Source: an uncultured bacterium (lineage in GTDB: Bacteria > Patescibacteriota > Patescibacteriia > Magasanikbacterales > GWA2-37-8). From it: 64,000 nt of DNA. The translations under genes and the position numbers were made by a program. Positions 1,513-45,885 of this stretch are shown here, in pieces. The stretch covers positions 3,275 to 67,274 of the forward strand of contig CALCZC010000025.1 in the NCBI GenBank assembly GCA_937903605.1. Reading direction: 5' to 3'. The stretch's first letter is position 1. Each line of letters opens with the position of its first letter. The notes under the pieces were generated by a model. The model did not search any database and was not told the DNA's origin. It worked only from the letters and a program-made list of their open reading frames with translations.

Positions 1513-1541
1513 TTGATTTTTTTCTCATTTTGTGCTATAAT
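1513..1541 (+). promoter_or_regulatory. sigma70-type promoter TTGATT-17-TGTGCTATAAT
   Basis: -35 ttgatt at 1513-1518, 17-bp spacer, extended -10 tgtgctataat at 1531-1541, ~20 nt upstream of the ATG at 1564. The same extended -10 recurs at 11901, 19985 and 23035. Confidence 0.5.
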
Positions 1542-2417: not shown

Positions 2418-3509
2418 ATGCATCCTCCACATTTACCAAATCCTTCCTGCAGCTTATTGTTACGTCACCTTAGTCAGCGCTTGGGTATATTTTTGTTAGC
2501 TATTATTTCCGGTCTTATCGCCGGATTGGCCGGGGGGGCGATGGCTATCGGTTGGATTTGGCCTGATTTTGGCGGTGGTAACTATCTTTTTGTTTCTCAG
2601 GGGGAACGGGGGAATCAGCGGATAGAAATGGAAGAAGTTATCAAAAAAGAAACTTCACAAAAAATAATGACGGTTTATAAAGGTACACAAAAAGCTGGGG
2701 ATGTTACTTATCTTAATTCTCAAAATAAAATCGGCGAAGCGGTGTTGGTTGGGAGCGATGGTTGGTTGGCAATGTATTTGGAAAACGAAAGAGAACTAAA
2801 CACCGTTTATCTGTGGGCTGCGGTAAATCACGAAGGTAGCGTCTACCAGGTAGAAAAAAATCTTTATGACAAATTTACTAAAATAGTTTATTTCAAAATC
2901 AAAGGATCTTTGAAAAAAGACGGTGACCAAATAAAAAATGAACAGTTTAAAGTGGTTGGTTTTTCCGATGGAGAAAAATTTGGTTCTCAAGTTTTTGTTT
3001 TTCAAAACAATCAATGGCTATATAATTTTTTGGATTTTGAATATTTTACGACAGAAAAACCGCATCTTGATTCGGTTCCTTTGCGAGTCGTTTCTTTGGG
3101 CAATAAAAATACCCAAATTGGATCGTTGGTTTTTACCACGCAAGGAAGATTATTGGGTGTTATAAATAAAGACGGTGAGATGATAAGTAGTATTTATCTG
3201 ACCAGGGTTTTGCCTGGTGTGCTCAATAAACAAAAAATAATTTATCCGACACTTTCGGTTGAAGGTTGGTTTTCTACAGAACAAAAAATTATTATAAACA
3301 ATGAAGCGGTTAAAGGGTTTTTGGTGGTAAATATACTTAAAAATGAAGCTAAACTACAAAAAGGAGATGTTATTTTAGAGATAAATGGACAAATTGTTGA
3401 AGATGAAAATATATGGTATAATTTAAAAGGAGAAAAAGCCCGTTTGAAGATAATGAGACGAGGTACGTTTTTGGATTTAGAGGCTCAAATAAAAGAAAAT
3501 ATTTTTTAA
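2418..3509 (+). CDS. membrane-anchored PDZ-domain protein, HtrA-like architecture but no recognisable Ser-protease triad
   Basis: An N-terminal TM segment (GIFLLAIISGLIAGLAGGAMAIGWIW) and a C-terminal PDZ-like motif (KGDVILEINGQIVED, RLKIMRRG). No GNSGGPL/H/D catalytic motifs were seen. Confidence 0.45.
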   Translation: MHPPHLPNPSCSLLLRHLSQRLGIFLLAIISGLIAGLAGGAMAIGWIWPDFGGGNYLFVSQGERGNQRIEMEEVIKKETSQKIMTVYKGTQKAGDVTYLNSQNKIGEAVLVGSDGWLAMYLENERELNTVYLWAAVNHEGSVYQVEKNLYDKFTKIVYFKIKGSLKKDGDQIKNEQFKVVGFSDGEKFGSQVFVFQNNQWLYNFLDFEYFTTEKPHLDSVPLRVVSLGNKNTQIGSLVFTTQGRLLGVINKDGEMISSIYLTRVLPGVLNKQKIIYPTLSVEGWFSTEQKIIINNEAVKGFLVVNILKNEAKLQKGDVILEINGQIVEDENIWYNLKGEKARLKIMRRGTFLDLEAQIKENIF

Positions 3510-3537: not shown

Positions 3538-4149
3538 ATGATTTCACTTATTTTTAAACACTGGAAGTTGGTATTTTTTTGGGGGTTATTTTTTGCCGCC
3601 ATCAGTGTCGGTTTGAGTTTACTTTTTCCTAGACAATACAGCGCTGACAGTCAAATACTTATCATTACTCGAGATCGCTATGGAGTGGATCCTTATACTC
3701 AAGCCAAAGCCGCAGAGAGAATAGGCGAAAACTTGGCACAGATTATGAAAACCGCCGATTTTTATAACAAGGTAATGGCCAGTGAATTTACTTTTAACAA
3801 AGATTCTTGGAAAAATATTTCTACCGAGCGTTTGCGTCGTAAAAATTGGCAAAAAGACGTATTGGCCAATGTTGTTTACGGAACTTCTTTGATGAAAATC
3901 ACCGTTTATCGCGACAATATTCAAGAAGCGGCGGCACTCAGTAATGCTGTGACCCAGACTATCACCGCTCACGGTTGGGAGTATGTTGGTGGTGACGTGG
4001 TGATAAAAGTTGTCGGTGAACCGCTAGTATCACGATGGTATGCTCGACCAAATTTTGCGATGAATGGATTGTCCGGATTTATCGTCGGCGCTTTTTTGGC
4101 CGCACTTTGGACAGTACGTTACAAAAGACACCATGTTTTTGGTTCTTAA
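3538..4149 (+). CDS. Wzz/chain-length-determinant-like bitopic membrane protein
   Basis: An N-terminal TM, a central soluble region with a motif resembling Wzz (ITVYRDN..EAAALSNAV), and a C-terminal G-rich TM (GLSGFIVGAFLAALW). 203 aa. Confidence 0.4.
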   Translation: MISLIFKHWKLVFFWGLFFAAISVGLSLLFPRQYSADSQILIITRDRYGVDPYTQAKAAERIGENLAQIMKTADFYNKVMASEFTFNKDSWKNISTERLRRKNWQKDVLANVVYGTSLMKITVYRDNIQEAAALSNAVTQTITAHGWEYVGGDVVIKVVGEPLVSRWYARPNFAMNGLSGFIVGAFLAALWTVRYKRHHVFGS

Positions 4150-4188
4150 AATAAATTTTAAAATTATAATTTATATTTTTTTTAAAAA

Positions 4189-4564
4189 TATGCTAAATTT
4201 TGTAAAAAAAGTTTTTAATAATAAAGAAGAAGAAGTACCGGAAAATTTAGAAAATGTCGCAAATTACGTCGGTTTCAAATTAGCTTTTTATTTAAAAGCT
4301 TGTAATTTGAGCGAAGTGGAAAAAGAAAAAATATTTAAAACGCTAGAAGGAAAAACCTACCAAGAACTTGTAGAAATTTTGGATCGTTTTGATACCCTTT
4401 ATGCCGAAGGCAAGACCGCAGAATTGAATAAACAATTTGAAGATGGAGTCGCTAAGATAGTTGAAAAAACAAACCAGGATAAAAAATCCTTGGAAGAACG
4501 CACTGTTGCTAATATGAAAGAATTATTTATGCAAGCGAAAGCGATGGCTCAAGGTGAAAAATAA
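4189..4564 (+). CDS. hypothetical small protein (125 aa)
   Basis: Internal ATG at 4189 of ORF 4064-4564, chosen to avoid overlap with the upstream gene. The product (MLNFVKKVFNNKEEEVPENLEN…) is hydrophilic. Confidence 0.35.
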
Positions 4565-4602
4565 TTTTTATAAGCGAATTTTTGTAAGATAAAATTTTTA
4601 AT

Positions 4603-4806
4603 ATGGAGGAAAACAAAAAACAAAATTTAATAAAAAGTAAAGGTAAAGATAAAAAAGATAAAGTAGAAGAGGTGGTTAAATTGTTTCAGGAAACCATAAC
4701 TGTTGTGCGTCAAAGAATAATCGAACTGGAAGCCGAAATTAAAGAAAAAGAAGATTTGGAAAAAATTACTAAAATTAAAGAAAGAATAGGAAAAATAAGT
4801 GAATAA
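4603..4806 (+). CDS. hypothetical small K/E-rich coiled-coil protein (67 aa)
   Basis: ORF MEENKKQNLIKSKGKDKKDKVEEVVKLFQETITVVRQRIIELEAEIKEKEDLEK…; sits directly upstream of the giant gene. Confidence 0.3.
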   Translation: MEENKKQNLIKSKGKDKKDKVEEVVKLFQETITVVRQRIIELEAEIKEKEDLEKITKIKERIGKISE

Positions 4807-4840
4807 TTTTTTTAAAAAATGATTTTAATAATATAAAAAT

Positions 4841-7800
4841 ATGGCTAAAAAACCAGATCAAAATTCGCAGTTTGGCGATAGCTACCCGGAGCTAAAAGGT
4901 ATAGAAAAATCATTGTCTGATATTGAAAAAAACAAAGCCGAGGGCAATAAAGAAAAAATCAAACAAGAAATAGAAAATATAACACAGGCCTGCTTGGATA
5001 TTCAAGGTAAAGCCATTGTACTTTGGGAAAAAGCAAAAGGCCAAAAAGAGAAGAACAAGGCTACTGCGTTGATTGATTCTATCGTTGATCTCAAAAAAAC
5101 TGCTGATATGTTTAAGAATACTGACGAAGTAAACACGGAAGAAATCAAAAAGAAGCTAATTAAAATACAAGAAAAAACTAGAAATGTAGGAAATTTAAAT
5201 TCAAACAATAAAAAAGTTGAAATCGGTAATAAAAATAAAGTTAAAGTTGCTGAAGTAATTCCAGAGGCTAGTGCAGAAGACATGGCTAGATATGGTGGTA
5301 AAGGGGAACAAAAACCACCAGAAAAACAAGAAGAAGTTCAAGTAGACAATAATATAGATAGTAATAAAGAAGAAAATGAAAAGAAAGAAAAAGAAGCCTT
5401 GATTGCTGCAGCCAAGAATAAAGAAGATCTTTTTGCGGCTTTGGATAAAATCGGAGAAGTCAAAGGTTCTTCAAGAACATATTCTACGGAAGAAATCAAA
5501 GATGCTATTGAAGCTCTTTTTGCCGGTGTGGTTATTGCTGGAAAAGGCGTTACTAGGGAATTGGGTATTCGTGATAAAGCTGAAGAATTATTAAAAAAAG
5601 AAAAAACACCAAAAAATAAGAAAGATATTATAGAAAAAGCAGAAAATAGAAAAACCATAAACAAAGAAGAATTTAAAAAAATAATAGATGAAATCAAAAC
5701 CGCTCAAGGATTGATTGATTTTTTGAATTCTGCACCAGGTTGGATTGACGCCGGAGATGGATTATTTAATTTTGCGGATGATAAATCTGTTGAAAATAAC
5801 GTTAAAAAAGTTAAAGAGGGTTTTCTTGTAGGTTTTGGCAAAGAATATAAAGCCGGATATTTACCAGAGATTTTAAAAAATAAAATAGAAGAAATTCGAA
5901 ATTCAAAAAAAACCAGATCAAAAAAACCAAATACAGAGACTGTAAAATCAGATAATGATCCAGCTACAGAATCTAAACCAGAATCTGTGCCAACTTCACA
6001 GCCAGAATCTAAATCAGAATCTAAACCGGAGCCTAAACCAACTTCACAGCCAGATTTGGTTCCAAAAGAAAAAATTGGAGCAAGACAAAAAATTAAGATA
6101 GAAAAAATAAATATTAATAAACCTTCAGAAGGTAAGGAAGGAATCAGAATAATTGAAGAAACTACAGTAGAAAAGCCAAAAGCAGATGAAGTTCAGAAAC
6201 CAACTGAAAAAAAGAAGCCATTTGATCGAGCGGCTGCTTTTACTTCCATCATTGATTTTATGGATGAGCGAGAGTTTAAAAAGCAGAAAAAAGAAGTTCG
6301 TGGTGAGATAGATGCAATTCGCATGATGCTCGAAGCAAATAATATAGATTTGTTAAAAAAGTATTTTAAAAATGGAAATCTAGAAGAAGATACAGAAAAT
6401 ATTTTTAGAGCAGACGCTAGATTTAAATGGGTTTTTGAATTGATGGGTGAAACTGAAGAAAAAAAAGTAGAAGATAAGGGTGTTTTAACAGGGGAAAAAG
6501 GCGGTATTGAAAAAATAGGTCCTGCAAAAGCAGAAATTGTTCAAAAAGCTGAAAATGAAAGCAAAAAAGCGCAAGAATATGCGGCAGAAATAAAAAAAGT
6601 TCAAAGCGAAGAAAGTGACGAGAGTAAATTAAAATGGCTTTTAAATGGAGCTTTGGGAATAGGAAAGATGGCGCCTAATATGGTGTATAAAGTTGTAGGT
6701 ACAGTTCTTGGTTTCAAAGCGGGTACCGATCTTGCTATGTATGCAGCTGGAGAAGCTCTAGGTAAAGTTACTGGCAAAGAACATGTTTGGGGTGATTATG
6801 CTGAACACAAAAAAGGCGAAAGAGAAATACCTGAAGAACAAAAAAGATTATATAAATTGTTTGATGAATATGTCGCTTCTTTTCGTCAAGCTAAATTGGA
6901 TAAGATGGAAGGTAAATCGGATAAAGAAGTGACTCAAAATTTAAAGAAGAGCATCGCCGAACTTTATAAATTCATTGATAATAATCGCTATATTGACCCC
7001 AAAGAAAAAAATTTATTTAAGGATCGATTAAATGCTATTGCTAATGATTTTAATCAAGAAAATCAAGAAATAACTGAACAGCAACAAGAAGAAGTAAAAA
7101 AATTGGCCGAAGCTTTTTTGGCAAATAAAATTTCTAAAGTTCAAATAACTAGAGATTGGGCTAACTTTGCTTTAGCTTGTACTCCTTTAACCATGCTTCG
7201 TATCGGAACTATCGCCGGAGGTTTTGCGGCTGAAAGATTTAGAAAAGGGGCTCTGGAATACAATAAAAAAAGTAAAACAGAAATAGAAGTTAAACAAGAA
7301 AGTAAATTTGCACATCGTCTAAAGTTTATGACCATAGATGCGGCGGCAGATTGGGGAGCGGCGATTGCTGGGGGACACACTAGATCCACTCAGAAACTTG
7401 AAAATAGAAGACATGGTGGAGAATATGACTATGATAAACAAGTAGATACATTAAACGAAGTTAAGAAGGAATTAAAAAATAAAACTTACGAGGACTATGT
7501 AGAGGAGTGTAAAGATAAGGGGATAAAAGCCTTGATGGAAGAAAAACAATTTGATGATTGGAAAAAAACCTCTTTGCAAAAATTGACCAAAAAATTAAGT
7601 GGCACAAGTATGGCTAGGGTTGGTGTTTTTAGTAAAGCGGCTGGACAAGCATTTGTTGGTGCCGGCTTAGTTGGATTGGCAATAAATGCTGATTCACTTG
7701 CCAATGTGGAATGGCATGATGCGGCAACCAATTTTTCCAATAATGTTGATAAGGGGTTAGACGCCCTACAATTGAAACCACTTCGTGATTTAGCGGATAG

Positions 7801-10009
7801 ATATTGGTCCGGAGATGGTTCTTCAACTTTGAATATAGAAATTTCCAGTGAATACGATCAGATAGAAAAAGTAAGACAATTGATTTACAAAGATTATGGT
7901 TTTGATCCAGTGGAAGCATTGAGCCAAAATGTAGATATTAATGAACTCGGAATAAATGATTTTATTCAACTCGGTAAAGATTTGCAAGAATTAAGAGAAA
8001 CAGGAGTTTCGGTGGAAGCCATCAGAGCGATAATGGCTGATGGTATTCAAGAGGGTGAATTAGAAAATTTATTTCAACTAGCAGATGCGTTTAAGGAAAA
8101 TCCGGACATGCTGGCACAGTTTAATCATCACCTTGAAGGTGGAGGAGAAATGGGTGAATTTTGGGATAACATGTTAGTCAAAAAAGGCGATGGTATTACG
8201 CAAATAATTGCTAGGCAGATTAAAGCCGATCCGAGCTCTTTTGGAATTGATGCCCAAACTCAAGCTAATCCAGACTTACTTGATAAAGCAGCTGCTATGA
8301 TCGCCACCAAAATCGCCAAAACACAAGGTGCAATAGATTTGCCTTGGGGAGAAAAAACTGTAATAAATGAATATGGGGAAACTAGATTATTGATGCCCAA
8401 AAACGGTGAAACCGGTTTGGTATTTTACAATAGAAATACAGGTAAAATAGAAATATTTAATACTCAGACTTATGAAGAGATGAAAGGTGCCGGAGTTGAA
8501 GTTGAAGTAAAAGGAGACACAACAACGACTTTTGATGAAGCAGAGAGACAAAATGCAGAAACTCTACAAATCTTAAATGCGGAAGAAAGAATAAACGTAG
8601 ACGCACAGTATCTCAGAGCGGTTAATAGAATTAAAGCGGACTTTGGAGCCGAAGAAGCACAAAGGTTGATCAATAAAATGAACGGAGTTTATGAAAAATT
8701 GAAAGAAATGGAGGGTGTAGTTGATAAAAATCCTGTAGCTGGTGCGGACAATATGGCTGGTAGATTACACGATCTAAAAGAGACTTTTTTGAAAATTCAG
8801 ACAGATGTGGTTCCTTCTAACTATGGAAATTCTTTGAGAATGTTGGATGATATAGAAAATGCCGTAAAGAGTGATATATCTATAATAGATAGACAAACAA
8901 CCGGCGGAATATCATCAAAATTTTTGGAAGCAAATGCTGGAGTAATAGAAAGTGTCAAAGAGGATAAAAACTTTTTACAGGGTTTAATAGATCGTGATGA
9001 AAAAATATTAGACGAAGGAAACCTACCAAAAGGAGAAAGAATTGCCATAGAAGACCGTCTACTACAGTCTCGTCAAAATATGGCACAAATAGACCAAAGA
9101 CTGGAAGAAGAATTTGGTATTAGACCAGAATCTGCTCCAGTTAAAACCACAGCTGGTTTCAAAGGGGCGGAGCAGGCATTGAATGAAAATACGGAAATGT
9201 TGAATAAGGAAGCGCAGATGGTTGGTGCTGAACAAAAAATCAGCACAGAGACACCCGATGCCTCCAAAGAGACAACTGAAAGTCCAGAGAAATTTTTTGC
9301 TCATCGAGAAAAAACCATCAGAGCTTTGGAAGAAAGTGGTGGTATTGGGCAAAAAAATGTTGAAACAAATGTGCCTGTAGAAAAAACAACCAGTGCGACA
9401 GAAGACATAGAAAAAATCCAACAAGATTTAGCGGCCAAAGATTTGTTAGAAGTTGAAAATAGGGGTAATGGTGTGATTGCAGAAATTAATAGAAATATGA
9501 ACTCGGTGAGATATAGATTTGGCGGGCAGGACTTCACAGATAAATTTAACGAAGCGCGTGTTGCTTATGAAAGTGCTTTACTAAAAGGAGATAGTGTATT
9601 GGCTACAAATAAAATTGGTGAACTGGAAAATTTAAGAAATTTTCAAGAAATGATAAATAGTAAAAATACGGTGGATACGGTTGTGTTACATAATAGAAAT
9701 ATGGCAATACTAGAAGATTTGAGAGAAAAATATCCAACAGGCAGGTTTGCAGATCTTTATAAAGAAGGTGAAAAACTAGGGCTTGGCTATGGAAAACAAA
9801 CTGATATGTTTAAGACAGGTGATGTAAAAGAAATAATTTCTGACATGGCAAAGCTTAACCAGAAGATCAATGAAAATCTTACTAATTACGAACTACCTCC
9901 AAATGCACAGGGTTTTCTTGATAAAGTTCAAGAGGCTTCCAAAGAGATGTTAGCTGGTCAAATTTCAAAACAAGAAATAAATATGATCTTGAGCAGTGTA
10001 AAAAAATAA
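4841..10009 (+). CDS. giant K/E-rich hypothetical protein (1722 aa) with internal Gly-rich amphipathic/TM-like segments
   Basis: A single uninterrupted 5.2-kb ORF. It has N-terminal coiled-coil and low-complexity regions (PESKSESKPEPKPTSQP) and three or four Gly/Ala-rich hydrophobic segments (LNGALGIGKMAPNMVYKVVGTVLGFKAGTDLAMYAAG; ANFALACTPLTMLRIGTIAGGFAA; VGVFSKAAGQAFVGAGLVGLAI). No enzymatic motif was recognised. Confidence 0.7.
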   Translation: MAKKPDQNSQFGDSYPELKGIEKSLSDIEKNKAEGNKEKIKQEIENITQACLDIQGKAIVLWEKAKGQKEKNKATALIDSIVDLKKTADMFKNTDEVNTEEIKKKLIKIQEKTRNVGNLNSNNKKVEIGNKNKVKVAEVIPEASAEDMARYGGKGEQKPPEKQEEVQVDNNIDSNKEENEKKEKEALIAAAKNKEDLFAALDKIGEVKGSSRTYSTEEIKDAIEALFAGVVIAGKGVTRELGIRDKAEELLKKEKTPKNKKDIIEKAENRKTINKEEFKKIIDEIKTAQGLIDFLNSAPGWIDAGDGLFNFADDKSVENNVKKVKEGFLVGFGKEYKAGYLPEILKNKIEEIRNSKKTRSKKPNTETVKSDNDPATESKPESVPTSQPESKSESKPEPKPTSQPDLVPKEKIGARQKIKIEKININKPSEGKEGIRIIEETTVEKPKADEVQKPTEKKKPFDRAAAFTSIIDFMDEREFKKQKKEVRGEIDAIRMMLEANNIDLLKKYFKNGNLEEDTENIFRADARFKWVFELMGETEEKKVEDKGVLTGEKGGIEKIGPAKAEIVQKAENESKKAQEYAAEIKKVQSEESDESKLKWLLNGALGIGKMAPNMVYKVVGTVLGFKAGTDLAMYAAGEALGKVTGKEHVWGDYAEHKKGEREIPEEQKRLYKLFDEYVASFRQAKLDKMEGKSDKEVTQNLKKSIAELYKFIDNNRYIDPKEKNLFKDRLNAIANDFNQENQEITEQQQEEVKKLAEAFLANKISKVQITRDWANFALACTPLTMLRIGTIAGGFAAERFRKGALEYNKKSKTEIEVKQESKFAHRLKFMTIDAAADWGAAIAGGHTRSTQKLENRRHGGEYDYDKQVDTLNEVKKELKNKTYEDYVEECKDKGIKALMEEKQFDDWKKTSLQKLTKKLSGTSMARVGVFSKAAGQAFVGAGLVGLAINADSLANVEWHDAATNFSNNVDKGLDALQLKPLRDLADRYWSGDGSSTLNIEISSEYDQIEKVRQLIYKDYGFDPVEALSQNVDINELGINDFIQLGKDLQELRETGVSVEAIRAIMADGIQEGELENLFQLADAFKENPDMLAQFNHHLEGGGEMGEFWDNMLVKKGDGITQIIARQIKADPSSFGIDAQTQANPDLLDKAAAMIATKIAKTQGAIDLPWGEKTVINEYGETRLLMPKNGETGLVFYNRNTGKIEIFNTQTYEEMKGAGVEVEVKGDTTTTFDEAERQNAETLQILNAEERINVDAQYLRAVNRIKADFGAEEAQRLINKMNGVYEKLKEMEGVVDKNPVAGADNMAGRLHDLKETFLKIQTDVVPSNYGNSLRMLDDIENAVKSDISIIDRQTTGGISSKFLEANAGVIESVKEDKNFLQGLIDRDEKILDEGNLPKGERIAIEDRLLQSRQNMAQIDQRLEEEFGIRPESAPVKTTAGFKGAEQALNENTEMLNKEAQMVGAEQKISTETPDASKETTESPEKFFAHREKTIRALEESGGIGQKNVETNVPVEKTTSATEDIEKIQQDLAAKDLLEVENRGNGVIAEINRNMNSVRYRFGGQDFTDKFNEARVAYESALLKGDSVLATNKIGELENLRNFQEMINSKNTVDTVVLHNRNMAILEDLREKYPTGRFADLYKEGEKLGLGYGKQTDMFKTGDVKEIISDMAKLNQKINENLTNYELPPNAQGFLDKVQEASKEMLAGQISKQEINMILSSVKK

Positions 10010-10027
10010 TATTTAAATATATTTAAA

Positions 10028-10060
10028 AAACACTTCGTTTAAAAACGAAGTGTTTTTAAT
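10028..10060 (+). terminator. Rho-independent terminator
   Basis: aaaaaacacttcgttt-aaaaa-cgaagtgtttttaat: an 8-bp stem followed by a T-run, just downstream of the giant ORF stop. Confidence 0.55.
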
Positions 10061-10185
10061 TTTTAACTGTATTATTTTCAGTTTTAGAAATCTGTGACGA
10101 CTATGATTGACAAAACTCTTAAATTAAGGTACTTTAGATAGTCGTTCGTTTACAATTTTATAGTCATTTTATAAGGGAGTTCGTC

Positions 10186-11718
10186 ATGAACACGTTTATC
10201 GCTCAGCAATCGTTGATCTGGATCCTCCTTTGTCTTTGCCTGATTCTTTTGGCGCTTCATTTCAAAAATGCGATCAAAAAGAAGAAAGAAAAACAAAGAC
10301 AGGATTTGGCTTTGGCAGAAGCCAAGAAAGAAGAAAAGCGTATGCTGGATTTACGAGAAGTATTACCCAAGCTTTTTACCGGCGCGCAACTAGATCATTT
10401 ACGGGCTAGACATTTCATTTTCAATGTCATGACGGCCGAAGAAAGAGACACAATGGCGCAGTGGTTTGAAACTCATGTGGAAATTTTCGGAAAATTTGAT
10501 TTTGAAACAGTCATTTCTGAGGAAAAAAGACCGCTGTTGAGCTTCGATGAATTTCAAGCTCTTTTTATGGTCGTTTTTAACGAAGGTTATTTTGATGCGA
10601 ACAAATTGCCTTTTGGTGGACAGTTGGAAATGTCTCAGAAGCTCAAATGGGCACAAATCCGTTTACGCTCTTCCATGCCGTCCAAAGAAGCAGAGGATGA
10701 AATGGACCGCTTAACCAAACAGGTGCGGTTTAGCCTGGAAGATCTCAACAGAGTGCGTAAATTGGCGGTCGCTGAGTTTGAAGCTCTGCAAAAAAAATCT
10801 CTGGAATTTGACCAGGTATTGGATAGATCGGAAAAAGCGGAAAAAGAGCGCTGGGAACTGTTTGTAGATACCAGGGAATTTTTGAAAGATTGGCCGGAAA
10901 TGAAAAAGGCCCTTTCCTTAGCTCGGTCTGAATACGAAGAACATCTCAAGGAATTGCTTGGTATCAAGAAAATGGGGATAGTTCAGATTCTCAAGGATAT
11001 TGCCGGTCACACCGAGGATCTGAACAAAATCAAAAAAGCCCTCGTTGACATGGAGAAGTGGCGTAAAGATAAGGAGAGTCTTCTGGAAAATAACCTGAGC
11101 AACCATCTGAACAAGATGTTTGAGCAGGCCAAAGACGATGCTGCTTTGCAACGTAAGCAGGCTCTGGATGAAATATCCAAAGTTGTGCATCAAGAGCTTG
11201 ATAAAATGGGTGAAGAAATTGCAGAACTACGTCAGAAGTTTGAAATGGTCCCTTCCGTGGTTGAAAAAAAGAAGGAAGAAGGACAATTCAACTGGTCTGC
11301 GACTATCTATGCTTTTTTTTCCATTTGCCTCATTGTTTTCATCTGGAGAGATCTTTCCAGAGAGAATGACCAATCGATGGTGGTTTTGGATAAGATCGCT
11401 CCGGTGGTGCAAGAAAATAATCTACTTTCCGATTCTGATCCGGAGGAATTTATTACAGTAGAGGAAAACGAGATACCGCCTTTTTATTCCGTTAACGAAG
11501 AAGAAGAAACTTCTTATGTTGAAGAAAAAGAATATTTGGAAAAAGAAACTAATTTTAATGAAGAGCCGAAATTGGTTCCAGTGCCGTTGATAGAAAAAAA
11601 GATAGCAAAAAAAGTTTTGGCTTTATGTCAGGACAAGAAATGCTGTCTTGATAGGTTCGGCAAGGACACTAAGACTTGGCCGCAGGCCATAGAGTGTATG
11701 CGATCAGTAAAAAAGTGA
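10186..11718 (+). CDS. hypothetical bitopic membrane protein with coiled-coil and Cys-rich C-terminus (510 aa)
   Basis: An N-terminal TM (LIWILLCLCLILLALHF), a long coiled-coil/charged region, a second TM (WSATIYAFFSICLIVFIW) and a C-terminal CQDKKCCLDRFG…ECM. GC content is intermediate (~42%). Confidence 0.55.
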   Translation: MNTFIAQQSLIWILLCLCLILLALHFKNAIKKKKEKQRQDLALAEAKKEEKRMLDLREVLPKLFTGAQLDHLRARHFIFNVMTAEERDTMAQWFETHVEIFGKFDFETVISEEKRPLLSFDEFQALFMVVFNEGYFDANKLPFGGQLEMSQKLKWAQIRLRSSMPSKEAEDEMDRLTKQVRFSLEDLNRVRKLAVAEFEALQKKSLEFDQVLDRSEKAEKERWELFVDTREFLKDWPEMKKALSLARSEYEEHLKELLGIKKMGIVQILKDIAGHTEDLNKIKKALVDMEKWRKDKESLLENNLSNHLNKMFEQAKDDAALQRKQALDEISKVVHQELDKMGEEIAELRQKFEMVPSVVEKKKEEGQFNWSATIYAFFSICLIVFIWRDLSRENDQSMVVLDKIAPVVQENNLLSDSDPEEFITVEENEIPPFYSVNEEEETSYVEEKEYLEKETNFNEEPKLVPVPLIEKKIAKKVLALCQDKKCCLDRFGKDTKTWPQAIECMRSVKK

Positions 11719-11734
11719 CTATATAAATTTTACA

Positions 11735-11765
11735 AGGTCGGCCCATAAAGCCGACCTTTTTTATT
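11735..11765 (+). terminator. Rho-independent terminator
   Basis: aaggtcggc-ccataaa-gccgacc followed by ttttttat. Confidence 0.65.
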
Positions 11766-11880
11766 TGAGTAACATTTGGATGATAAAAAGTATTATATAT
11801 GTATAATTTAAAAATATAGGATTAAATACTCAATATTTAACTAAATTTAGCCTTAAATTAGCCAAAAAGAGTAGGGGGTA

Positions 11881-11909
11881 TTGACAAAATTGTCTATTTG
11901 TGCTATAAT
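11881..11909 (+). promoter_or_regulatory. sigma70 promoter TTGACA-17-TGTGCTATAAT, with a ~235-nt leader
   Basis: Consensus -35 at 11881-11886 and extended -10 at 11901-11909. It is nearly identical over ~50 nt to the promoter at 19967-20016. A long untranslated leader runs to the ATG at 12146 and contains inverted repeats (tttgatcc…ggtgatcaaa). Confidence 0.6.
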
Positions 11910-12145
11910 ATGTCGTTACAATCAAAAAGGATTTTGATCCACTGTGGAAGAGGGTGATCAAAAGAACTATGAAAATAACTCCTTCCCGGGAGCGTTTTTT
12001 GTTCTTAAAATAAATTTTCTTTTTAACTGCACGGTTTAAAACATAAACCTTGTTAATAAGGAGAAAATTGTTCATTAAAATTAAAGATTTCGTTTATATA
12101 GGAAGTCCAGGATATTAACAACAGGAAAACACCAGGAGGTGTACG

Positions 12146-13129
12146 ATGAAGAAGATGATGCTTTTTGTCGCGATAGTTTTCGCGATGGTTACCGTGACTG
12201 CGCAGCAGAGCGTGTATCCCCTTAATCCCAGTTCCACAATCACGGTGCAGGAATGCATCGATCTGATGAACGCTGCCAAAACCGCCCAGACCAAAACCAC
12301 CGAAATGAAAAAGAAAGTGGAAGGGGTGGTCGCTGCTGTCAAAAAGGGTAACAAGACTCCGGAAGATGGGTCCAAAGAGATCTCCAAAGAGATCAAGGAG
12401 AACCCCGAAGTTCCTCTGGAAAGCAGAAAGGCGGCTAACGAAGTTGCCAGGAAAGTCCTTTATAAAAAGGATCTGACCGAAGCAATGGAAGCTTTCGAGA
12501 CCACTTTCAAGGCGGACCTCGCCAGATTGGAGGAGAAAATCTCCGGTCTTGAGGAAAGGATGGCAAAGCTTGAAGAAAGCGATGCTAAACAGAATGAACG
12601 CCTTGGCAATGTCGAGGAGGTGGTCGCAGATCATGAAAACCGGCTGGATAACCTGGAAGAGGGAATATTCTCCGGTTACTTCGGTGCAAAGTTTCTCACT
12701 TCTTCGGTGTTCGATACTGCCGGTGGTGGCGAACTGGGTATGACCGTGAAAATCGGCAAGCTCAATGGCCCGTTCAAAGCCGACTTCGGCGCAACCCTGT
12801 ATGGTTCGGAGATCAAAAATCTCATAGGAATCGAAGGCAGGGGCATAATCACCTGGATGAGCGACGATTTCAAATTCGTCAAGCTCGGCCTTGGTGGTAT
12901 GGGCGGTGGCATGTTTGATGTCAATAACGCCGGAAGAGTTTCCACTTCCTACGGCGGTGGGCAGTTCGAGATTTCGGCCGTTTACAAACGGTACGAGCTC
13001 TATGCCGATGTCAACCTCGGCGCAAGGGACATGCGCAAGATAAGCGGCCAGCACGAAACCAGTTTCTACTGGGGAGTGATAACTGGCGTCCGCATAAACT
13101 TCGGCGGTCCGTTCGAGACCGTCAAGTAA
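12146..13129 (+). CDS. secreted protein: signal peptide, coiled-coil stalk, C-terminal beta-rich (barrel-like) domain
   Basis: Signal peptide MKKMMLFVAIVFAMVTVTA-QQ. A heptad-like region (LARLEEKISGLEERMAKLEESDAKQNERLGNVEEVVADHENRLDNLEE) is followed by ~170 aa of alternating hydrophobic/Gly-rich strands (GMTVKIGKLNG…YELYADVNLGA…FYWGVITGVRINFGG). GC ~50%; RBS aggagg. Confidence 0.65.
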   Translation: MKKMMLFVAIVFAMVTVTAQQSVYPLNPSSTITVQECIDLMNAAKTAQTKTTEMKKKVEGVVAAVKKGNKTPEDGSKEISKEIKENPEVPLESRKAANEVARKVLYKKDLTEAMEAFETTFKADLARLEEKISGLEERMAKLEESDAKQNERLGNVEEVVADHENRLDNLEEGIFSGYFGAKFLTSSVFDTAGGGELGMTVKIGKLNGPFKADFGATLYGSEIKNLIGIEGRGIITWMSDDFKFVKLGLGGMGGGMFDVNNAGRVSTSYGGGQFEISAVYKRYELYADVNLGARDMRKISGQHETSFYWGVITGVRINFGGPFETVK

Positions 13130-13147
13130 AACGAATATCTTTAAAAC

Positions 13148-13171
13148 GGGAGGGTGAGTTCTTCACCCTCC
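13148..13171 (+). terminator. GC-rich hairpin (possible terminator; no T-run)
   Basis: gggagggtga-gttct-tcaccctcc: a 9-bp stem immediately after the stop at 13129, with no U-tract. Confidence 0.35.
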
Positions 13172-13322
13172 TATCCCAATCCTTGTCAATAACTTGTTTG
13201 TTGACAGAGTAATGGGAAACCATTAACTGCTCTTTGAAAATTTGCTGTAGAAAAAACCCTTTGAGAGGGTTTATATATAGAGGTTACAGGTAGTTTCATA
13301 ACAAACATCTTTGGAGGATGCC

Positions 13323-14174
13323 ATGAAGAACGTACTTTTTTTCTTTGCCGTCGTGTGTGCGATGGTTTTCACCGTTTCCTGCGCCAACTGCACTTACAAT
13401 GAGAAGCTCGGCGCGTGTATCGAAGACATGCCCGAAGAGACCGATGACGCCAAGACCGACATCGACGACGCCAAGACCGACGACGAAAAGTCGGACACCG
13501 ACACTGTCGAAGGTCCCAAACAGGGTGAAGAAGGCGGAAAATGCTTCGCCAACAAGTCCTGTATGGAAGGGCTGGAATGCATTAAGCTCAATGAAGACTA
13601 TATCTGCATCGTAGCAGAAGAAGTCGATGACGACCTCGCAAGCGACGACGAAGAGACCGACGACGAAACCAGCGATGATGACGCAGTCGATCCCGACCTT
13701 GGAAAAGAAGGTCATGGCTGTCTTCCGAACGGAACCTGCAACGAAGGTCTCGTATGTGACCAGGCTTCCGAGAACGAAACCGATGTCTGCGTAAAAGCGG
13801 TCGGCGTAGTCGGAGATAAGGACGGCTCGTGTAAGCCCGATCGGACTTGTAACACAACCTCACTGGTTTGTTACCGTGAAGACTTCGTCTGTCATAATAT
13901 GCCGACCGTCGGCACACGCACCGTTTGCTGGTCGCGTGAACTCAATACCTCACCGGTGCAGGATTCCTGCTCGAAAGAAGGGGGCATCGCTCCCGCGGTA
14001 TTTGAGTATGTCAGCGGGACAAAAACCCCGAACTGCGAAGGACTCGTGAATGTGGACCCGGAGTTCGAATGCGTGCGTATCAACGCAACGGTCGAAACCT
14101 TCCGTAATTCCACACCGGCCGAGCGAGATGACCTCGCCCTCACTTCGTCGTTCTACCTTCCGCCCATAAATTAA
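13323..14174 (+). CDS. acidic Cys-knot secreted lipoprotein, family member 1
   Basis: MKNVLFFFAVVCAMVFTVSC-ANCTYNEKLGACIEDMPEE: a signal peptide ending in Cys, then D/E/T-rich linkers and repeated knots G.C.PN.TC.EGL.C (KCFANKSCMEGLECI; GCLPNGTCNEGLVCD; SCKPDRTCNTTSLVCY). An RBS (ggagga) lies 5 nt before the ATG at 13323. Confidence 0.65.
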   Translation: MKNVLFFFAVVCAMVFTVSCANCTYNEKLGACIEDMPEETDDAKTDIDDAKTDDEKSDTDTVEGPKQGEEGGKCFANKSCMEGLECIKLNEDYICIVAEEVDDDLASDDEETDDETSDDDAVDPDLGKEGHGCLPNGTCNEGLVCDQASENETDVCVKAVGVVGDKDGSCKPDRTCNTTSLVCYREDFVCHNMPTVGTRTVCWSRELNTSPVQDSCSKEGGIAPAVFEYVSGTKTPNCEGLVNVDPEFECVRINATVETFRNSTPAERDDLALTSSFYLPPIN

Positions 14175-14181
14175 CGGCGGA

Positions 14182-14250
14182 CCCCAAGTGCTTTTGGGGT
14201 GACTACAGCAACTTTTACTTGACAGCCGATGCACCGGCTGTCTTTTTTTT
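14182..14250 (+). terminator. tandem hairpins with a strong Rho-independent terminator
   Basis: ccccaa-gtgctt-ttgggg (14182-14199), then gacagccg-atgcac-cggctgtc followed by tttttttt (14221-14250). Confidence 0.7.
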
Positions 14251-14331
14251 ATCAATTTTCCCCTCCTTTTGATAAGAGGAGGCCTGCCTGCCGGTAGGCA
14301 GGACTAGGGTGGAGTCAAGTGGAAAAAATAG

Positions 14332-14360
14332 TTGACAAATTATAAATTTTATGCTACATT
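14332..14360 (+). promoter_or_regulatory. candidate promoter TTGACA-17-TGCTACATT
   Basis: -35 ttgaca at 14332-14337 and a TG-extended -10-like tacatt at 14355-14360, upstream of the EF-hand repeat gene. The -10 is weaker than consensus. Confidence 0.4.
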
Positions 14361-14525
14361 TAGCTGTTAAAAGATTTTCCTTTTTCGGCGCTTTTAATGG
14401 GTTTTTTGTATTTATTTTGAAAGTGCAAAAAAGAGGGAAAGCTCTTTGAAAAATTAGCAACTTTAGATAGGGAGAACAGAATGAAAAACGGTTTTAACAA
14501 CAGCAACTGCACGGAGGTGCACGCA

Positions 14526-17500
14526 ATGAAGAACTACTTCGTTTTTTTCATCGCCGTAGCGATGATGCTCATGCTTGCTTGTGAAAGCAGCAAAGACGGT
14601 CGTGATGGTCGTGATGGTCGCGATGGTATCGCGGGCCAGGACGGCCAGGATGGTCAGGACGGGGAAGATGCTCCGGTTTCGCTTTCGCGCTCCGAAAAAG
14701 CGAGTGAAGAAGAAGCGCGTGAGAACTGTGGCGAGGACATCGTCAACGCCAATTGGATCTGTACCGGCGTGGACGAAAATGAAAATGGCTATCTCGACGA
14801 TTATGAATTCGCCGAATGCCATATTGAATGCGCGGGTGCGCCCGGTCACAGTGCATTGGTTGCAAAAACCGATACCACACAAACCGAGTGTCCCAACGGC
14901 GGATTTCATTTTCTTTCCGGTATTGACACCAACGACAATGGCGAGCTTGATGCCGAAGAAGTTTTGGTTGATGAGCTCGTTTGTAACGGCGTTGATGGTC
15001 AGGATGGTATCGGTGATGTAGTTCGTACCAGTACGGAACCCGCCGGCACCAACTGCCAAAACGGTGGTCAGAAAATCGAGCGTGGTCGCGATCTCAACCG
15101 CAACGGTCAGCTGGATGTGTCCGAGATTACCAGTACAAATTATGTATGCAATGGTATTGACGGTACGAACGGGCATGATGCGAGGACTCGCACCAGTATT
15201 ACCAATGATCCGACATTGTGTGCCAGCGGTTCCGGAGTTATTTTTGAATCCGGTACTGACAACAATGACAACGGAGTGCTCGATGATCCGGAGGTTTCCA
15301 CTACGGATGTTATCTGTGATGGTGCCAACGGTAAGACCACACGCATGATCGTGGCCACAGAACCCGCAGGAACAAACTGCGCAGTCGGCGGTTTTTCCGT
15401 CGTTTATGGCGTAGATGAAAATGACAATGGACTTCTCGATACTACCGAGCAGTCGCCCGCACAGTACATCTGTCATGGACAAGACGGTTACAGTGTCGTG
15501 ATGAGAGTCACGGCTGATATTGCTGTTTGTTCATGGAACGGATACAGGTTGCAGTTCGGTCAGGATCTTGATCGTAATGGTATCTTGGATACCGGCGAGG
15601 AAACATCCGACTTTTATATCTGCAACGGATCCGATGGTCTCATTTCCCGCATCAATATTTCCGACGAGCCCAATGGTGAAAACTGTGCGGCCAGCGGAAA
15701 AAGAATAGATACGGGGATGGACATCAATCGCAACGGCCTGCTTGACAGCACCGAGATTACCACGACCAACTATGTCTGCAACGGTGTGCAGGGTCCGCAG
15801 GGAGTTCGGGGATACAATTCGCTTTCGCGGATAACTCCGGATCTTGGCGGAACAGTCTGCACCTGGGGTGGATATTATTTGGAAGTCGGCACAGACATCA
15901 ATGAAGACTGGATCTTGGATCTGGATGAAGTTGGTCACAGTGCTTATGTCTGCAACGGTATAGATGGTAAGACCTGCAGTTCCATACTCAACGATGAACC
16001 CATCGGTACGAACTGTGCTTACGGCGGAAAAATCGTGTATTCCGGTTGTGACGATGATTACAACGGTGTGCTGGACCTCTACGAGGTCGTTCATACCGAC
16101 TACATCTGTAACGGCGCCACCGGTGCGATAGGTCCTGCCGGGTACAATGCCCTGACCAATATGCAAATAGCGGTCAGCGGTTGTCCCAATGGCGGATATG
16201 TTTTCACTGCCGGCACAGACGCCAATGATGATCAGATCCTTGATCTCACGGAAGTGACGGTCACGAATCTTATCTGTCATGGTGTCAATGGCCAGGATGG
16301 TTATACCTATCGTGTGCAGATGGTTGATGAACCCGTGAGTACAAATTGTGTTCAAGGTGGCAAGGCTATCAGTGGAGGTATAGACAGCAACCGTAATGGT
16401 GTGCTCGATCCTTCCGAAGCCGATGATCCGGTTTACATCTGTCATGGTGCAAACGGACTGCCCGGCGCCAATGGTCAAAACGGTCTAAGTATGGCTTTTG
16501 TCATCAGCGTGGCGAGCATTTCCGAATGCCCGGCCGGTGGTGAGAAGCTGGAGCTTGGATTGGATATTGATGCCAGTGGCGTGCTTGAGCTCGTTGAAGT
16601 TACTAGCACGGTTCTCATCTGCAATGGTCAGAACGGTCAGAACGGTAAAAATTCTTTGACCACTATGACCGTGGAGCCCATAGGTACAAACTGCGCCAAA
16701 GGCGGCCATCTCTTGTTGGTCGGTATTGACGACAATGAAAACGGTATTTTGGATTCCAGTGAAGCCGGGGTTCCGCAGTATGTCTGCCATGGTTTGGATG
16801 GCATCAATGGTGCCAACGGGACCAACGGCCACAATGCTTTGGCGATGGTTACCACATCCACTTTGGGATTCTGTCCCAATGGCGGATCCGAACTGCGGAC
16901 CGGAACTGATCTCAATGATGATGGGGTTTTGAATGCGGGCGAAGTTTCTTCGTTTGCGCTTATCTGTAACGGCCAGAACGGCGCCAATGGTGCCGACGGT
17001 TACAGCTCCAGAACTACGATGATCAGTGAGCCCGCAGGTGCCAATTGCCAGGCCGGAGGATTTTTTATTATCTCCGGTACTGATACCAACAACAACGGCG
17101 CGTTGGATGTTACGGAAATTGAATATTCCGGATACATCTGCAACGGCATAAATGGGAATCCCGGCAGTAATGCCGTAACCCGTGGCCGTCTCGCGCTCGT
17201 TTCTGAATGTCTTAATGGCGGAAGCATCGTGGAAACCGGTACGGATAGTAACAACAATGCTGTACTGGACGATGTGGAAGTCATGACGATAAGTTATCTC
17301 TGCAACGGTGATCCGGGAACAAATGGCCAGGATGGCATTTCCTATCGTGTTATCATCACCAATGAATCCGCTGGAATTAATTGTCAGGCCGGTGGAAAAA
17401 AATTGGAAGGTGGTTACGATACTAACAGGAATAATATCCTGGATCCAGGCGAAATCGTAATGACCGAGTATGTCTGCAACGGCATGGACGGTCAGGATGG

Positions 17501-18296: not shown

Positions 18297-18315
18297 GTTG
18301 CTTTAGTTCATTTCA

Positions 18316-18343
18316 GGCGGTCCTTCTAGGACCGCCTTTTTTA
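18316..18343 (+). terminator. Rho-independent terminator
   Basis: ggcggtcc-ttct-aggaccgcc followed by tttttt. It is a structural paralog of the terminator at 19876. Confidence 0.7.
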
Positions 18344-18353
18344 TTATAGGTAT

Positions 18354-23016: not shown

Positions 23017-23045
23017 TTGATTTTTAGCGAAAAATGTGCTATAAT
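23017..23045 (+). promoter_or_regulatory. sigma70 promoter TTGATT-17-TGTGCTATAAT
   Basis: -35 at 23017-23022 and extended -10 at 23035-23045. The ORF-track ATG at 23034 lies inside the promoter, so the true start is 23055. Confidence 0.55.
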
Positions 23046-23054
23046 TTAGATAGT

Positions 23055-24521: not shown

Positions 24522-25729
24522 AAATTTTACAGATAAATAAATTTTATTATCGCAAAGGCGGAGCAGACCAGCATTTTTTGGATTTGGTTTCTTTGTTGAA
24601 GGAGCAGGGGAATGAAGTTTCGGTTTTTTCCATGCGCGATAAAAATAATGAAAAAACTGAAGATGAAAAATATTTTGTTTCACATCGCGAGTTCGGTAAG
24701 TTCAATCTAAACGCCTATCTGAGACCTCTGAAAACAATTTATTCTTATGAGGCTAAAAGAAAAATTACCAAATTAATTAAAGATAAGAAACCAGAAATAG
24801 CACATTTGCATCTCATTTATCATCATCTTACCCCTTCCATTTTGCCGGTATTGAAAAAAAATAAAATTCCGGTAGTGGCTACCATTCACGATTGGAAATA
24901 TCTTTGCCCAAATTATTTATTATTTACACAAGACAAAGTTTGTGATCGTTGTAAGGGTGGAAAATATATAAATTGTTTTAAATATAGATGTCTGCACGGG
25001 AGTTTGCCACAAAGTTTTCTCGCTACGATGGAAGCCTATTTTCATCATGCAAAAAAATATTATGAAAATTACATAGATCTATACATAGCGCCAAGTGAAT
25101 TTGTTAGAAATAAATTCATTGAATTTGGTTATCCGGCGAAAAAAATTATTGTTCTACCTCATTTTTTACCAAATGAATTTTTGAAAATAAAAAAAGGAAA
25201 TACCCCAACATCTCTACCTTTGAGTTTTGCCTATGTTGGTAGATTATCTCCGGAAAAAGGTATTGTTCGTTTGGGTCAAATTTGGTTAGAACAAAACATT
25301 CCGTATCGTTTAGAAATTTTTGGTTCCGGTCCGGAAGAAGAAAAAATAAAAAAAATAGTGGAAAAAAGTCACGGGAAAATAGTTTGGCACGGTTTTATGC
25401 CACGAAAAGATATTTTCAAGAATTACGGACGTTTTTGCGCCACTATTTCTCCAAGTGTTTGTTACGAAACATTTGGATTGTCTGTTTTGGAATCTTTGAG
25501 TTTTGATGTTCCGGCTATAGTTAACAGCCTAGGTGGTTTACAAGAATTTACCCGAAAAACTCCGGCGGTCTTGGGTTTTGATATGGAGAAACCGGAAACT
25601 TTATTACCCACTCTTCAAAAATCTTTGGAACCAAAAATCCGAGAAGAGGCGATAAAATTTTGTTTGAATTATCCTACGATGAAAGATTATTATCAAAAAA
25701 TAACGGCTACATATCAAAGTTTGTTATGA
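24518..25729 (+). CDS. glycosyltransferase family 4
   Basis: MKILQINKFYYRKGGADQH… with the GT4 C-domain (…FGLSVLESLSFDVPAIV…). The start overlaps the upstream stop (ATGA). Confidence 0.75.
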   Translation: MKILQINKFYYRKGGADQHFLDLVSLLKEQGNEVSVFSMRDKNNEKTEDEKYFVSHREFGKFNLNAYLRPLKTIYSYEAKRKITKLIKDKKPEIAHLHLIYHHLTPSILPVLKKNKIPVVATIHDWKYLCPNYLLFTQDKVCDRCKGGKYINCFKYRCLHGSLPQSFLATMEAYFHHAKKYYENYIDLYIAPSEFVRNKFIEFGYPAKKIIVLPHFLPNEFLKIKKGNTPTSLPLSFAYVGRLSPEKGIVRLGQIWLEQNIPYRLEIFGSGPEEEKIKKIVEKSHGKIVWHGFMPRKDIFKNYGRFCATISPSVCYETFGLSVLESLSFDVPAIVNSLGGLQEFTRKTPAVLGFDMEKPETLLPTLQKSLEPKIREEAIKFCLNYPTMKDYYQKITATYQSLL

Positions 25730-42451: not shown

Positions 42452-42478
42452 AAAGTTCGCTTTTGCGAACTTTTTTAT
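42452..42478. terminator. bidirectional terminator hairpin
   Basis: aaaaaa-gttcgc-tttt-gcgaac-tttttt. Confidence 0.55.
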
Positions 42479-45880: not shown

Positions 45881-45885
45881 AAAAT

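Follow-up and report, generated by a model that had tools for sequence, protein, structure and literature searches.

What a protein of 1722 amino acids (aa) with no recognisable domain is doing among the envelope genes of a bacterium with a small genome is the question raised by the DNA described here, a stretch of 64,000 nucleotides (nt) from contig CALCZC010000025.1 that we call the window. The gene concerned, whose product we refer to as the giant, starts with ATG and runs from 4841 to 10009 on the + strand. It represents a protein family that appears confined to Patescibacteria. As to its function, we tentatively suggest, with a probability of about one in three, that the giant lies in the cytoplasm close to the membrane and serves as the scaffold of an envelope-polymer machine or an attachment machine.

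An earlier note, made from the letters alone, had described a single 5.2-kilobase (kb) open reading frame (ORF) for a K/E-rich giant protein of a small-genome symbiont, and that much is borne out. The ORF is uninterrupted, and because the identical 1722-aa protein is encoded on nine contigs from independent assemblies (Logan SRR3330210, ENA ERZ724084 and NCBI), it is neither an accident of assembly nor a gene interrupted elsewhere; the genes of its relatives are intact too, wherever no contig end cuts them. An interrupted ORF had been one of the outcomes that, by the earlier note, would overturn its view, and none was found. Lys makes up 12.1% and Glu 11.5% of the product, which has a net charge of -35 and nearly no Cys, and the nearest database entry is named Candidatus Magasanikbacteria, the lineage of the candidate phyla radiation (CPR) to which the host belongs. 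In comparison with an 88%-identical partial allele in a related locus, L007, the ratio of nonsynonymous to synonymous divergence (dN/dS) is 0.02–0.21 in the diverged segments, and the giant appears to be under ordinary purifying selection. As the gene is intact on nine contigs and shows such ratios where it has diverged, we regard it as real and constrained.

The giant matches nothing in Pfam, NCBIfam, PHROGs (E ≤ 0.01) or PADLOC, and 31 full-length relatives contain zero Pfam domains. Searches of PDB chain sequences with the giant and with two profiles returned nothing meaningful. Foldseek comparison of AlphaFold2 models with the PDB gave best E-values of 0.24 for the central module described below and 0.03 for aa 1000–1400, with template-modelling scores (TM-scores) of at most 0.19 overall and at most 0.18 for the central module, none of them significant. 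The view that the protein carries no recognisable enzymatic motif is therefore upheld by library, PDB and fold searches alike. The family is unplaced in sequence and, according to Foldseek on medium-confidence models, in fold, and a literature search on giant or large proteins and on Wzz in Patescibacteria found nothing on it. Orphan families are common in CPR-type genomes; the novelty here is that of an unplaced family only, and no new mechanism is demonstrated.

Relatives do exist. A filter-free HMMER scan of 1.84 billion representative sequences with giant aa 250–1400 identified 39 at E ≤ 1e-3, mostly 800–1950 aa long and all from Patescibacteria, in genome collections labelled Magasanikbacteria, Parcubacteria or 'Patescibacteria group'. 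Word-indexed searches are nearly blind to them: the whole giant retrieved only itself, the 88% partial copy and one ortholog, and the alignment of the central module, either plain or with its K/E-rich stretches masked by X, retrieved no matches. We suspect that K/E-rich words swamp the pre-filter of such searches. A first metagenome scan was likewise empty, and narrower alignments did yield loci.

The only region common to all family members is module M, about 370 aa long, all-helical and central (giant aa ~600–970). In the giant it occupies 6620–7762 (+; aa 594–974). This module, which defines the family, contains four Gly/Ala/Ser/Thr-rich helices, H1 to H4, which are the 'amphipathic Gly-rich segments' of the earlier note. 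H1 reads AYKTxTSxxGVKxxTD and is followed by a GWGDI turn; a K/E-rich helical hairpin of ~130 aa then leads to H2 (KVSGxxIAKDALNTALTATGLSMLRGxxYAG), H3 (KDLxVNSAxETxR) and H4 (DFxKAxGTVARGFGIYGLAL), and the module ends in EQG...NFxxNxER. In the giant itself, ~75 aa are inserted between H3 and H4. Most of the invariant residues (G31, K33, D37, D59, D179 and N371 in segment numbering, with N182 and R194 nearly so) are polar or charged. AlphaFold2 models aa 594–974 as all helical, with a predicted local distance difference test score (pLDDT) of 72.9 and a predicted template-modelling score (pTM) of 0.60. We take module M to be a closely packed helical domain in which small residues abound, and do not read its helices as membrane spans.

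Beyond module M, family members are mosaics whose N- and C-terminal arms are unrelated to one another's. Among 29 proteins the N-terminal parts, 0 to 980 aa long, form 21 unrelated classes, and there are at least 10 unrelated classes of C-terminal part. Sub-modules corresponding to giant aa 258–375, 437–556, 1020–1166 and 1212–1370 recur in differing combinations among relatives. The giant begins with a strain-variable arm with a MAKK... start (4841–5260, +, aa 1–140), which is 53–62% identical to that of L007 in amino acids at a synonymous divergence (dS) of 1.55, the background level, and the sole relative of its first ~250 aa is a near-identical allele, P0002. Module X (SAPGWIDAGDGLFNFADD; 5612–5965, +, aa 258–375) is 77% identical to its counterpart in P0003 amid flanks that cannot be aligned. 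A low-complexity Pro/Ser/Glu/Lys linker (5918–6220, +, aa ~360–460) with indels and a dN/dS above 1 relative to L007 leads to module Y (6149–6508, +, aa 437–556), common to P0004, P0007 and P0040. Beyond module M lie module H (7898–8338, +, aa 1020–1166), which has an invariant (V/I)(H/K)KGDG...RQ...P...G motif, and the helical module Z (8474–8950, +, aa 1212–1370), common to P0003, P0004 and P0005. The C-terminal arm (8981–10006, +, aa 1381–1722) has no detectable relative beyond the identical P0001. The AlphaFold2 model of aa 1000–1400 is less certain overall (pLDDT 65.7, pTM 0.42), with pLDDT 70–84 within the module H part.

Module H bears a slight likeness to LysM, in that its V-x-K-G-D-(G/T)-hydrophobic-x-x-I resembles the start of a LysM unit, and hhalign gave the pair a probability of 41%, over only 15 columns of a unit of ~44 aa (region aa ~1105–1190). 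The likeness goes no further: the Pfam LysM model matched none of eight module-H segments even at E 10, and the module H model is not of the beta-alpha-alpha-beta type.

Where does such a protein reside? No signal peptide was seen by a hydropathy heuristic in the giant or its relatives; the giant's N-terminus (MAKKPDQNSQ...) is hydrophilic and basic, and basic N-termini are seen across the family. Gly/Ala-rich hydrophobic stretches had been reported, and they are present at four sites (aa ~597–650, 776–800, 826–845 and 925–956), but their best 19-residue Kyte-Doolittle means are 1.2–1.4, below the 1.6 usual for a membrane span. Among the 34 family members of at least 800 aa, 28 lack any 19-aa window above that value, their best windows being 1.1–1.5. 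With hydropathy below transmembrane grade across the family, we rejected these stretches as membrane spans. The 'surface or cell-cell contact apparatus' of the earlier note is accordingly not shown, given the missing signal peptide and the 28 of 34 members without a transmembrane-grade segment. Its N-terminal coiled coil is weakly supported: a crude home-made heptad score covered 320–657 residues, against 149–419 in shuffles (~2 standard deviations), in short patches that reveal no long coiled-coil rod. Self-BLAST found no internal repeats. Overall, the giant seems to consist of small helical modules joined by linkers and not to form a long coiled-coil rod.

The gene does not stand alone. Thirteen of 15 loci share the order p263, p363, Wzz-like gene, A, (B), giant, where L001–L004 count as one and the 13 are the window, L001–L004, L007, L008, L009 and the eight metagenome loci L012–L019 (contig ends cut off p263 in some loci). 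The earlier note had recommended a synteny comparison; the order of the envelope genes is kept, and the A-B-giant part is itself hypervariable, as described below. In other cluster loci, identity to the p263, p363 and Wzz proteins of the window goes down to 25–50%.

The Wzz-like gene upstream of the giant (3538–4149, +) had been predicted, and two lines of evidence agree with the prediction: its 203-aa product scores 27.2 bits against PF02706 (cut-off 25.5, E 4.9e-6), and it has two transmembrane segments, at aa 1–33 (Kyte-Doolittle 2.28) and aa 171–195 (1.64), followed by a short basic C-terminal tail. It also matches TIGR01006 at E 9.7e-6, far below that model's own cut-off. Both traits are those of a polysaccharide co-polymerase (PCP) of the Wzz type, and the gene is linked to the giant in the 13 loci. 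A Wzy_C gene is co-located with it, at 23034–24521 in the window and, in L009 and L012, a few kb beyond the giant.

Upstream of the Wzz-like gene, p363 (2418–3509, +), conserved in 13 of the 15 loci, encodes a protein that is anchored by an N-terminal transmembrane segment, continues with a beta-rich domain and ends in a PDZ-like region weakly similar to HtrA/DegP. Its PDZ match is 17 bits, below the cut-offs of 23–27; TIGR02037 matches aa 265–360 at E 1.7e-4, and no PDB sequence matches. At the position of the catalytic Ser motif (GNSGGP) it reads, by eye, QIGSLV, and p363 may be a pseudo-protease that has lost its catalytic Ser. The first gene, p263 (1564–2355, +), encodes a polytopic protein with about eight hydrophobic segments (by eye, from hydropathy) and 8.4% Trp, which library scans assign to no known family; it is kept at the same position in L001, L007, L008, L012, L013, L015, L016 and L019.

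Two small K/E-rich ORFs had been noted directly before the giant. Both are real. For the first, the mechanical list has an ORF of 166 aa that begins at 4064 and overlaps the Wzz gene, but independent gene calls make it protein A, a helical protein of 124 aa (4190–4564, +) with the N-terminal motif GK+LGFLIAxLxxSxEE+E. The second is protein B (4603–4806, +), a positional small ORF for a K/E-rich, helical protein of 67 aa. Whether they are conserved partners has a divided answer. A family hidden Markov model (HMM) detects A immediately before the giant at every one of the 15 loci. B is optional: an ORF of 60–101 aa sits at its position in the window, L001, L005, L006, L007, L008, L009 and L019, and none lies between A and the giant in L012, L013, L017 and L018. 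No consistent Pfam family was found for either protein. The two genes also change places, A preceding B in the window (4190–4806), L005, L006, L007 and L019, and B preceding A in L001 (9465–9978).

The two loci that depart from the common order, L005 (2350–12479) and L006 (2213–12439), belong to two other Magasanikbacteria genomes and carry A, B and giant without Wzz, p263 or p363. There the trio has a gene for a FecR-domain protein and one for a CHASE2 adenylate/guanylate cyclase upstream and a PF09826 beta-propeller gene downstream; it may be a second copy of the cassette, one linked to signalling.

The six genes could well be transcribed together. A sigma-70-like promoter candidate (TTGATT, 17 nt, TATAAT, with TG) lies before them at 1513–1541 (+), found by consensus match only. 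An intrinsic-terminator-like hairpin with perfect 15-nt arms, 2 nt between them and a T run (10026–10067, +; the hairpin itself at 10026–10057) follows 17 nt after the giant's stop, and the aligned L001 and L008 sequences show a hairpin at the corresponding position. The earlier note had not mentioned it. Before 10026, terminator-like sites on the + strand occur only at 2172 and 3073, with stems of 5–6 pairs. From Wzz to the giant, the gaps between genes are 1–40 nt in the window, L001, L008 and L009. This arrangement fits a six-gene transcription unit ending at the 10026–10057 hairpin.

These data bear directly on a skeptical explanation, namely that the giant is a cytoplasmic protein unrelated to the envelope genes, such as a nucleoid, ribosome or division scaffold, with A (and B) as its true partners and with a neighbourhood that is no more than frozen synteny. 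The conserved order does take in clearly unrelated genes, those for L20, L35, IF3, SmpB and transfer-messenger RNA (tmRNA), L005 and L006 keep A-B-giant alone elsewhere, and the divergence of the giant is not paralleled in Wzz, p263 or p363. But the 1–40 nt gaps and the lack of any strong terminator-like site before 10026 argue for co-transcription, and the order is held between loci with only 37–50% identity in p263, p363 and Wzz, so low that unselected order would usually have decayed. On balance we judge this explanation improbable.

The evolution of the cluster is strikingly uneven. Between the window and L001, the amino acid identity is 88% for p263, 73% for p363 and 87% for the Wzz-like protein on one side, and 65% for a 510-aa protein and 96% for a DUF7151 protein on the other; between them it is 23% for A, 49% for B and 28% for the giant. 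The DNA alignment ends at 4153, just past the Wzz stop, and restarts at 10138, within the promoter of the gene that follows the giant, with only two short islands between. Because the alignment drops out over exactly this interval, we take A, B and giant to have been replaced as a cassette. In comparison with L007, the flanking genes have a dS of 1.2–1.3 and the giant's first 120 codons a dS of 1.55; at window position ~5307 the identity leaps from ~70% to 99–100%, stays at 93–100% up to ~7094, the Pro/Ser-rich linker excepted, and then settles at 86–95% (dS 0.3–0.55). The near-identical tract region spans 5307–8144 of the window and 10467–13302 of L007. Either DNA was recently exchanged within the gene, or the single L007 contig, which ends inside the gene, is partly chimeric; even with a chimera some recombination is needed, because the 86–95% segments are far less diverged than the 70–80% background. 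Judged from these alignments, A-B-giant behaves as a hypervariable cassette, replaced and recombined much faster than its flanks.

What, then, might the cassette do? For a cytoplasmic scaffold, the starting point is that the giant is taken to stay in the cytoplasm, since its relatives have no signal peptide or convincing transmembrane segment and no NTPase is recognisable in the cluster (Pfam, NCBIfam); nor do the cluster or 31 full-length relatives show an enzyme or secretion domain. It would bind A (and B) and, through them, attach from the cytoplasmic side to the membrane proteins encoded in the same operon. Its part would be that of a scaffold or spacer by which a Wzz/Wzy-type polymer machine, or an attachment structure built on that machine, is organised or regulated. 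The gene order conserved in 13 of 15 loci, the short gaps, the terminator and the promoter-like site are all consistent with such a role, as are the envelope-biogenesis neighbourhood and the recurrence of Wzy_C in L009 and L012.

There is precedent, drawn from background knowledge, for a cytoplasmic partner encoded just after a PCP, the position that the giant's gene takes here. In monoderm capsule loci the partner is a bacterial tyrosine kinase (BY-kinase), CpsD, encoded after CpsC. PCP-2b systems of this kind (CpsC/CpsD, YwqC/YwqD) share with our cluster a short Wzz with two transmembrane segments whose gene is followed at once, within one operon, by genes for signal-less products, with Wzy_C and glycosyltransferase genes nearby. 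They differ in that the giant is not a BY-kinase (it has no P-loop or other domain), is 8–10 times larger, is hypervariable and is encoded with small helical proteins; nor were LCP or phosphatase genes seen. A second parallel, also from background knowledge, is with HMW1, HMW2 and HMW3 of Mycoplasma, likewise giant, K/E-rich, helical and signal-less proteins of a small-genome bacterium dependent on other cells, and the acidic Pro-rich linker at aa ~360–460 adds to the likeness. They have no sequence or domain relation to the giant, which lacks a long coiled-coil rod, and we know of no attachment organelle in Magasanikbacteria.

Several points weigh against such a scaffold and keep our estimate low. 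The localisation rests on missing signals, with no positive evidence for it, and the BY-kinase parallel is one of position only. The presumed docking partners are 87–88% identical between the window and L001 where A, B and giant are only 23, 49 and 28% identical, with no sign of co-variation; cassette replacement and recombination tracts are more typical of externally facing proteins; the trio of L005 and L006 can exist apart from Wzz, p263 and p363, at least as a second copy; and a long coiled-coil rod is lacking.

The variability leads naturally to the opposite view, in which the giant would be exported by a non-classical route as a host-contact protein or effector, with A and B as chaperones or targeting partners, comparable to those of T7SS LXG-Lap pairs or of T3SS translocators, and p263, p363 and Wzz as conduit or surface tether. 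The variable arms would then touch the host or its envelope, and the weakly hydrophobic helices of module M could insert into a target membrane in the manner of soluble alpha-helical pore formers. A hypervariable cassette between conserved flanks, tracts with dS of about 0 beside dS of 1.2–1.5, at least 10 C-terminal and 21 N-terminal unrelated classes, and small helical partners directly upstream in all loci are what one might look for in such a protein, as are conserved helices of sub-transmembrane strength and a basic N-terminus across the family. Moreover, cultivated Patescibacteria are episymbionts that need adhesins (PMC11665869). The difficulty lies in the means of export and insertion. 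There is no signal peptide, and the cluster has no recognisable NTPase. Neither the cluster nor the other scanned ORFs of the window include a component of a type VII, type III or type IV secretion system (T7SS, T3SS, T4SS), and the explanation needs an export motor that is not seen. By our own reading of the model, the arms of module M are broken by conserved charges and are too short for a transmembrane hairpin, and Foldseek returned no pore-former or translocator fold. We consider export in this form possible, if rather unlikely; it is the chief rival of the scaffold.

A specific candidate, an alpha-helical pore former or T3SS translocator, found no support and was set aside: the helices are below transmembrane strength and carry conserved K, D and R, and no fold of the ClyA, XaxA or IpaB type was matched (XaxA did appear in the Foldseek list for aa 1000–1400, at E 0.9 and a TM-score of 0.10). 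The LXG-Lap proteins of T7SSb systems are, from background knowledge, another likeness, being large and polymorphic with swappable ends, lacking a Sec signal and having one or two helical proteins of ~60–125 aa encoded upstream. They differ in that the conserved part of the giant is central, not N-terminal, and in that it has no toxin domain or obvious immunity gene. LXG (PF04740) is also absent among the Pfam matches of the giant and 31 relatives, a further point against export, and no EssC/FtsK-type ATPase or WXG100 gene was found among the scanned ORFs of the 64-kb window, the rest of the genome being unread.

In a variant that joins display to an envelope machine, the conserved cluster would be a hitherto unrecognised, Patescibacteria-specific envelope apparatus that presents or delivers the hypervariable giant for host contact, with A as the adaptor between interchangeable giant 'alleles' and an invariant membrane machine. 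We regard it as unlikely. If true, proteins would be displayed or exported by a novel route, and the giant would determine host specificity at strain level in episymbionts.

Fast evolution is also a mark of conflict systems, and A-B-giant could be imagined as an intracellular anti-phage or addiction module, a rapidly evolving sensor or effector in a recombination hot spot. Replacement of the cassette within 4154–10137 and the mosaic architecture agree with this, and protein A has a weak PADLOC match to PDC-M02A (E 6e-4, over 36 residues). At conflict hot spots one expects varied cargo, but the same family occupies this site in all 15 loci; neither the giant nor the 31 relatives contain a nuclease, ATPase, protease or NAD-ase domain, and PADLOC matches neither the giant nor p263, p363, the Wzz-like protein, B or the 510-aa protein. 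A conflict module thus seems very improbable to us.

Lastly, a long helical protein with Gly/Ala patches brings to mind a phage tape measure, perhaps in a prophage remnant, or an SMC/Rad50-like protein, the two assignments that the earlier note had named as ones that would overturn its view. Neither was obtained in Pfam, NCBIfam, PHROGs or Foldseek. The likeness to tape measures consists in length, helicity and weak Gly/Ala-rich hydrophobicity, and to it may be added that a tmRNA gene is located 4 kb upstream, such genes being common sites of integration, and that a neighbouring gene at 12146–13129, not the giant, has weak PHROG tape-measure and weak SMC matches. The differences lie in library, phage, fold and synteny results. 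No tape-measure model matched; tblastn of the giant against 50,697 phage records gave no match, and 2.9 million IMG/VR contigs searched with two patterns held no relative; in a Foldseek search of BFVD the best match had E 0.86, and no tape measure scored better than E 1.8. No phage genes flank the giant, whose site is vertically conserved on the chromosome among envelope and translation genes. The tape measure was rejected on these grounds, and so was an SMC/Rad50-like protein, for which Pfam and NCBIfam gave no SMC_N, hinge or AAA model match and the heptads are patchy. An origin as a tmRNA island or prophage was rejected as well: as we read the strands, the cluster is located 5' of the tmRNA gene, the synteny is deep, and phage relatives were not found. 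We hold this whole group of explanations to be extremely improbable, and what probability remains goes to something else.

The result has some bearing beyond this locus. Much of bacterial diversity falls within Patescibacteria, and to our knowledge the class of the present host has no cultured member. New here are a family invisible to the libraries, its partner A, a conserved six-gene context and a hypervariable, recombining signature, which marks the locus as a place where strains differ. Those Patescibacteria that have been cultivated all live attached to other microbes, and outside Saccharibacteria the molecules of attachment are largely unknown (PMC11665869). Should the giant turn out to be just an internal scaffold, Wzz-type envelope proteins would still have gained a novel type of partner.

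The setting of the cluster agrees with its envelope genes. Wzy_C, GT4 and GHL15 + FG-GAP protein genes lie at 23034–27729, and Bac_transf, S8 subtilase, epimerase, GT2, GT4 and methyltransferase genes at 42475–51370; both polysaccharide groups surround genes for MurC, a family-4 glycosyl transferase (PF00953), MurB and MurJ, and a sulfatase-family protein is also encoded in the window. From these assignments, most of the 64-kb window appears to be given over to the cell envelope. On the other side of the cluster, a tmRNA gene (Rfam, 150 bits) encoding a 22-residue tag, ANLFSKAKAMFGNTMSFAPAMA, adjoins an SmpB ORF identified by synteny with L001, L007 and L008 (473–867 and 987–1466, both on the - strand), and the L20, L35 and IF3 genes lie just beyond SmpB in related loci.

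Downstream of the giant, the bitopic membrane protein that had been foreseen is indeed encoded at 10186–11718 (+): its 510-aa product has two hydrophobic segments (aa 1–32 and 366–392, from hydropathy) and a K/E-rich middle. It is conserved only in close relatives, and unrelated bitopic proteins take its position in L008, L009 and distant loci. Because the terminator precedes it and it has a conserved promoter of its own (TTGACA at 10107–10112, 17 nt, TACTTT at 10130–10135, with TTGACA invariant and the spacing correct in the window, L001 and L008), the gene forms a separate transcription unit. An inverted repeat bracketing this promoter had been noted, and it exists (ACGACTAT / ATAGTCGT, at 10097–10104 / 10138–10145, 33 nt apart, no strand assigned), but only 8 nt of it are perfect, near chance for an A+T-rich spacer by a rough estimate, and its left arm is not conserved in L001; we rejected it as an operator. 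The hairpin at 10026–10057 is by far the stronger of the two structures. Directly after the 510-aa gene, a terminator-like hairpin at 11734–11758 (+) with 9 pairs, 6 of them G-C, and a T run bounds a monocistronic unit.

From ~11420 to 18344 the window has a GC content of 0.49, compared with ~0.35 otherwise, and the GC content remains raised to ~22000. This GC-rich block is 90% identical to L001 in DNA, versus a background of 78%, which suggests a recent transfer or sweep. It contains genes for a secreted coiled-coil/Gly-rich protein (12146–13129), an acidic Cys-rich putative lipoprotein (13311–14174) and a 1271-aa protein with 17 DUF7151 repeats (14481–18296), and a perfect TTGACA-17-TATAAT promoter with TG is found at 11881–11909.

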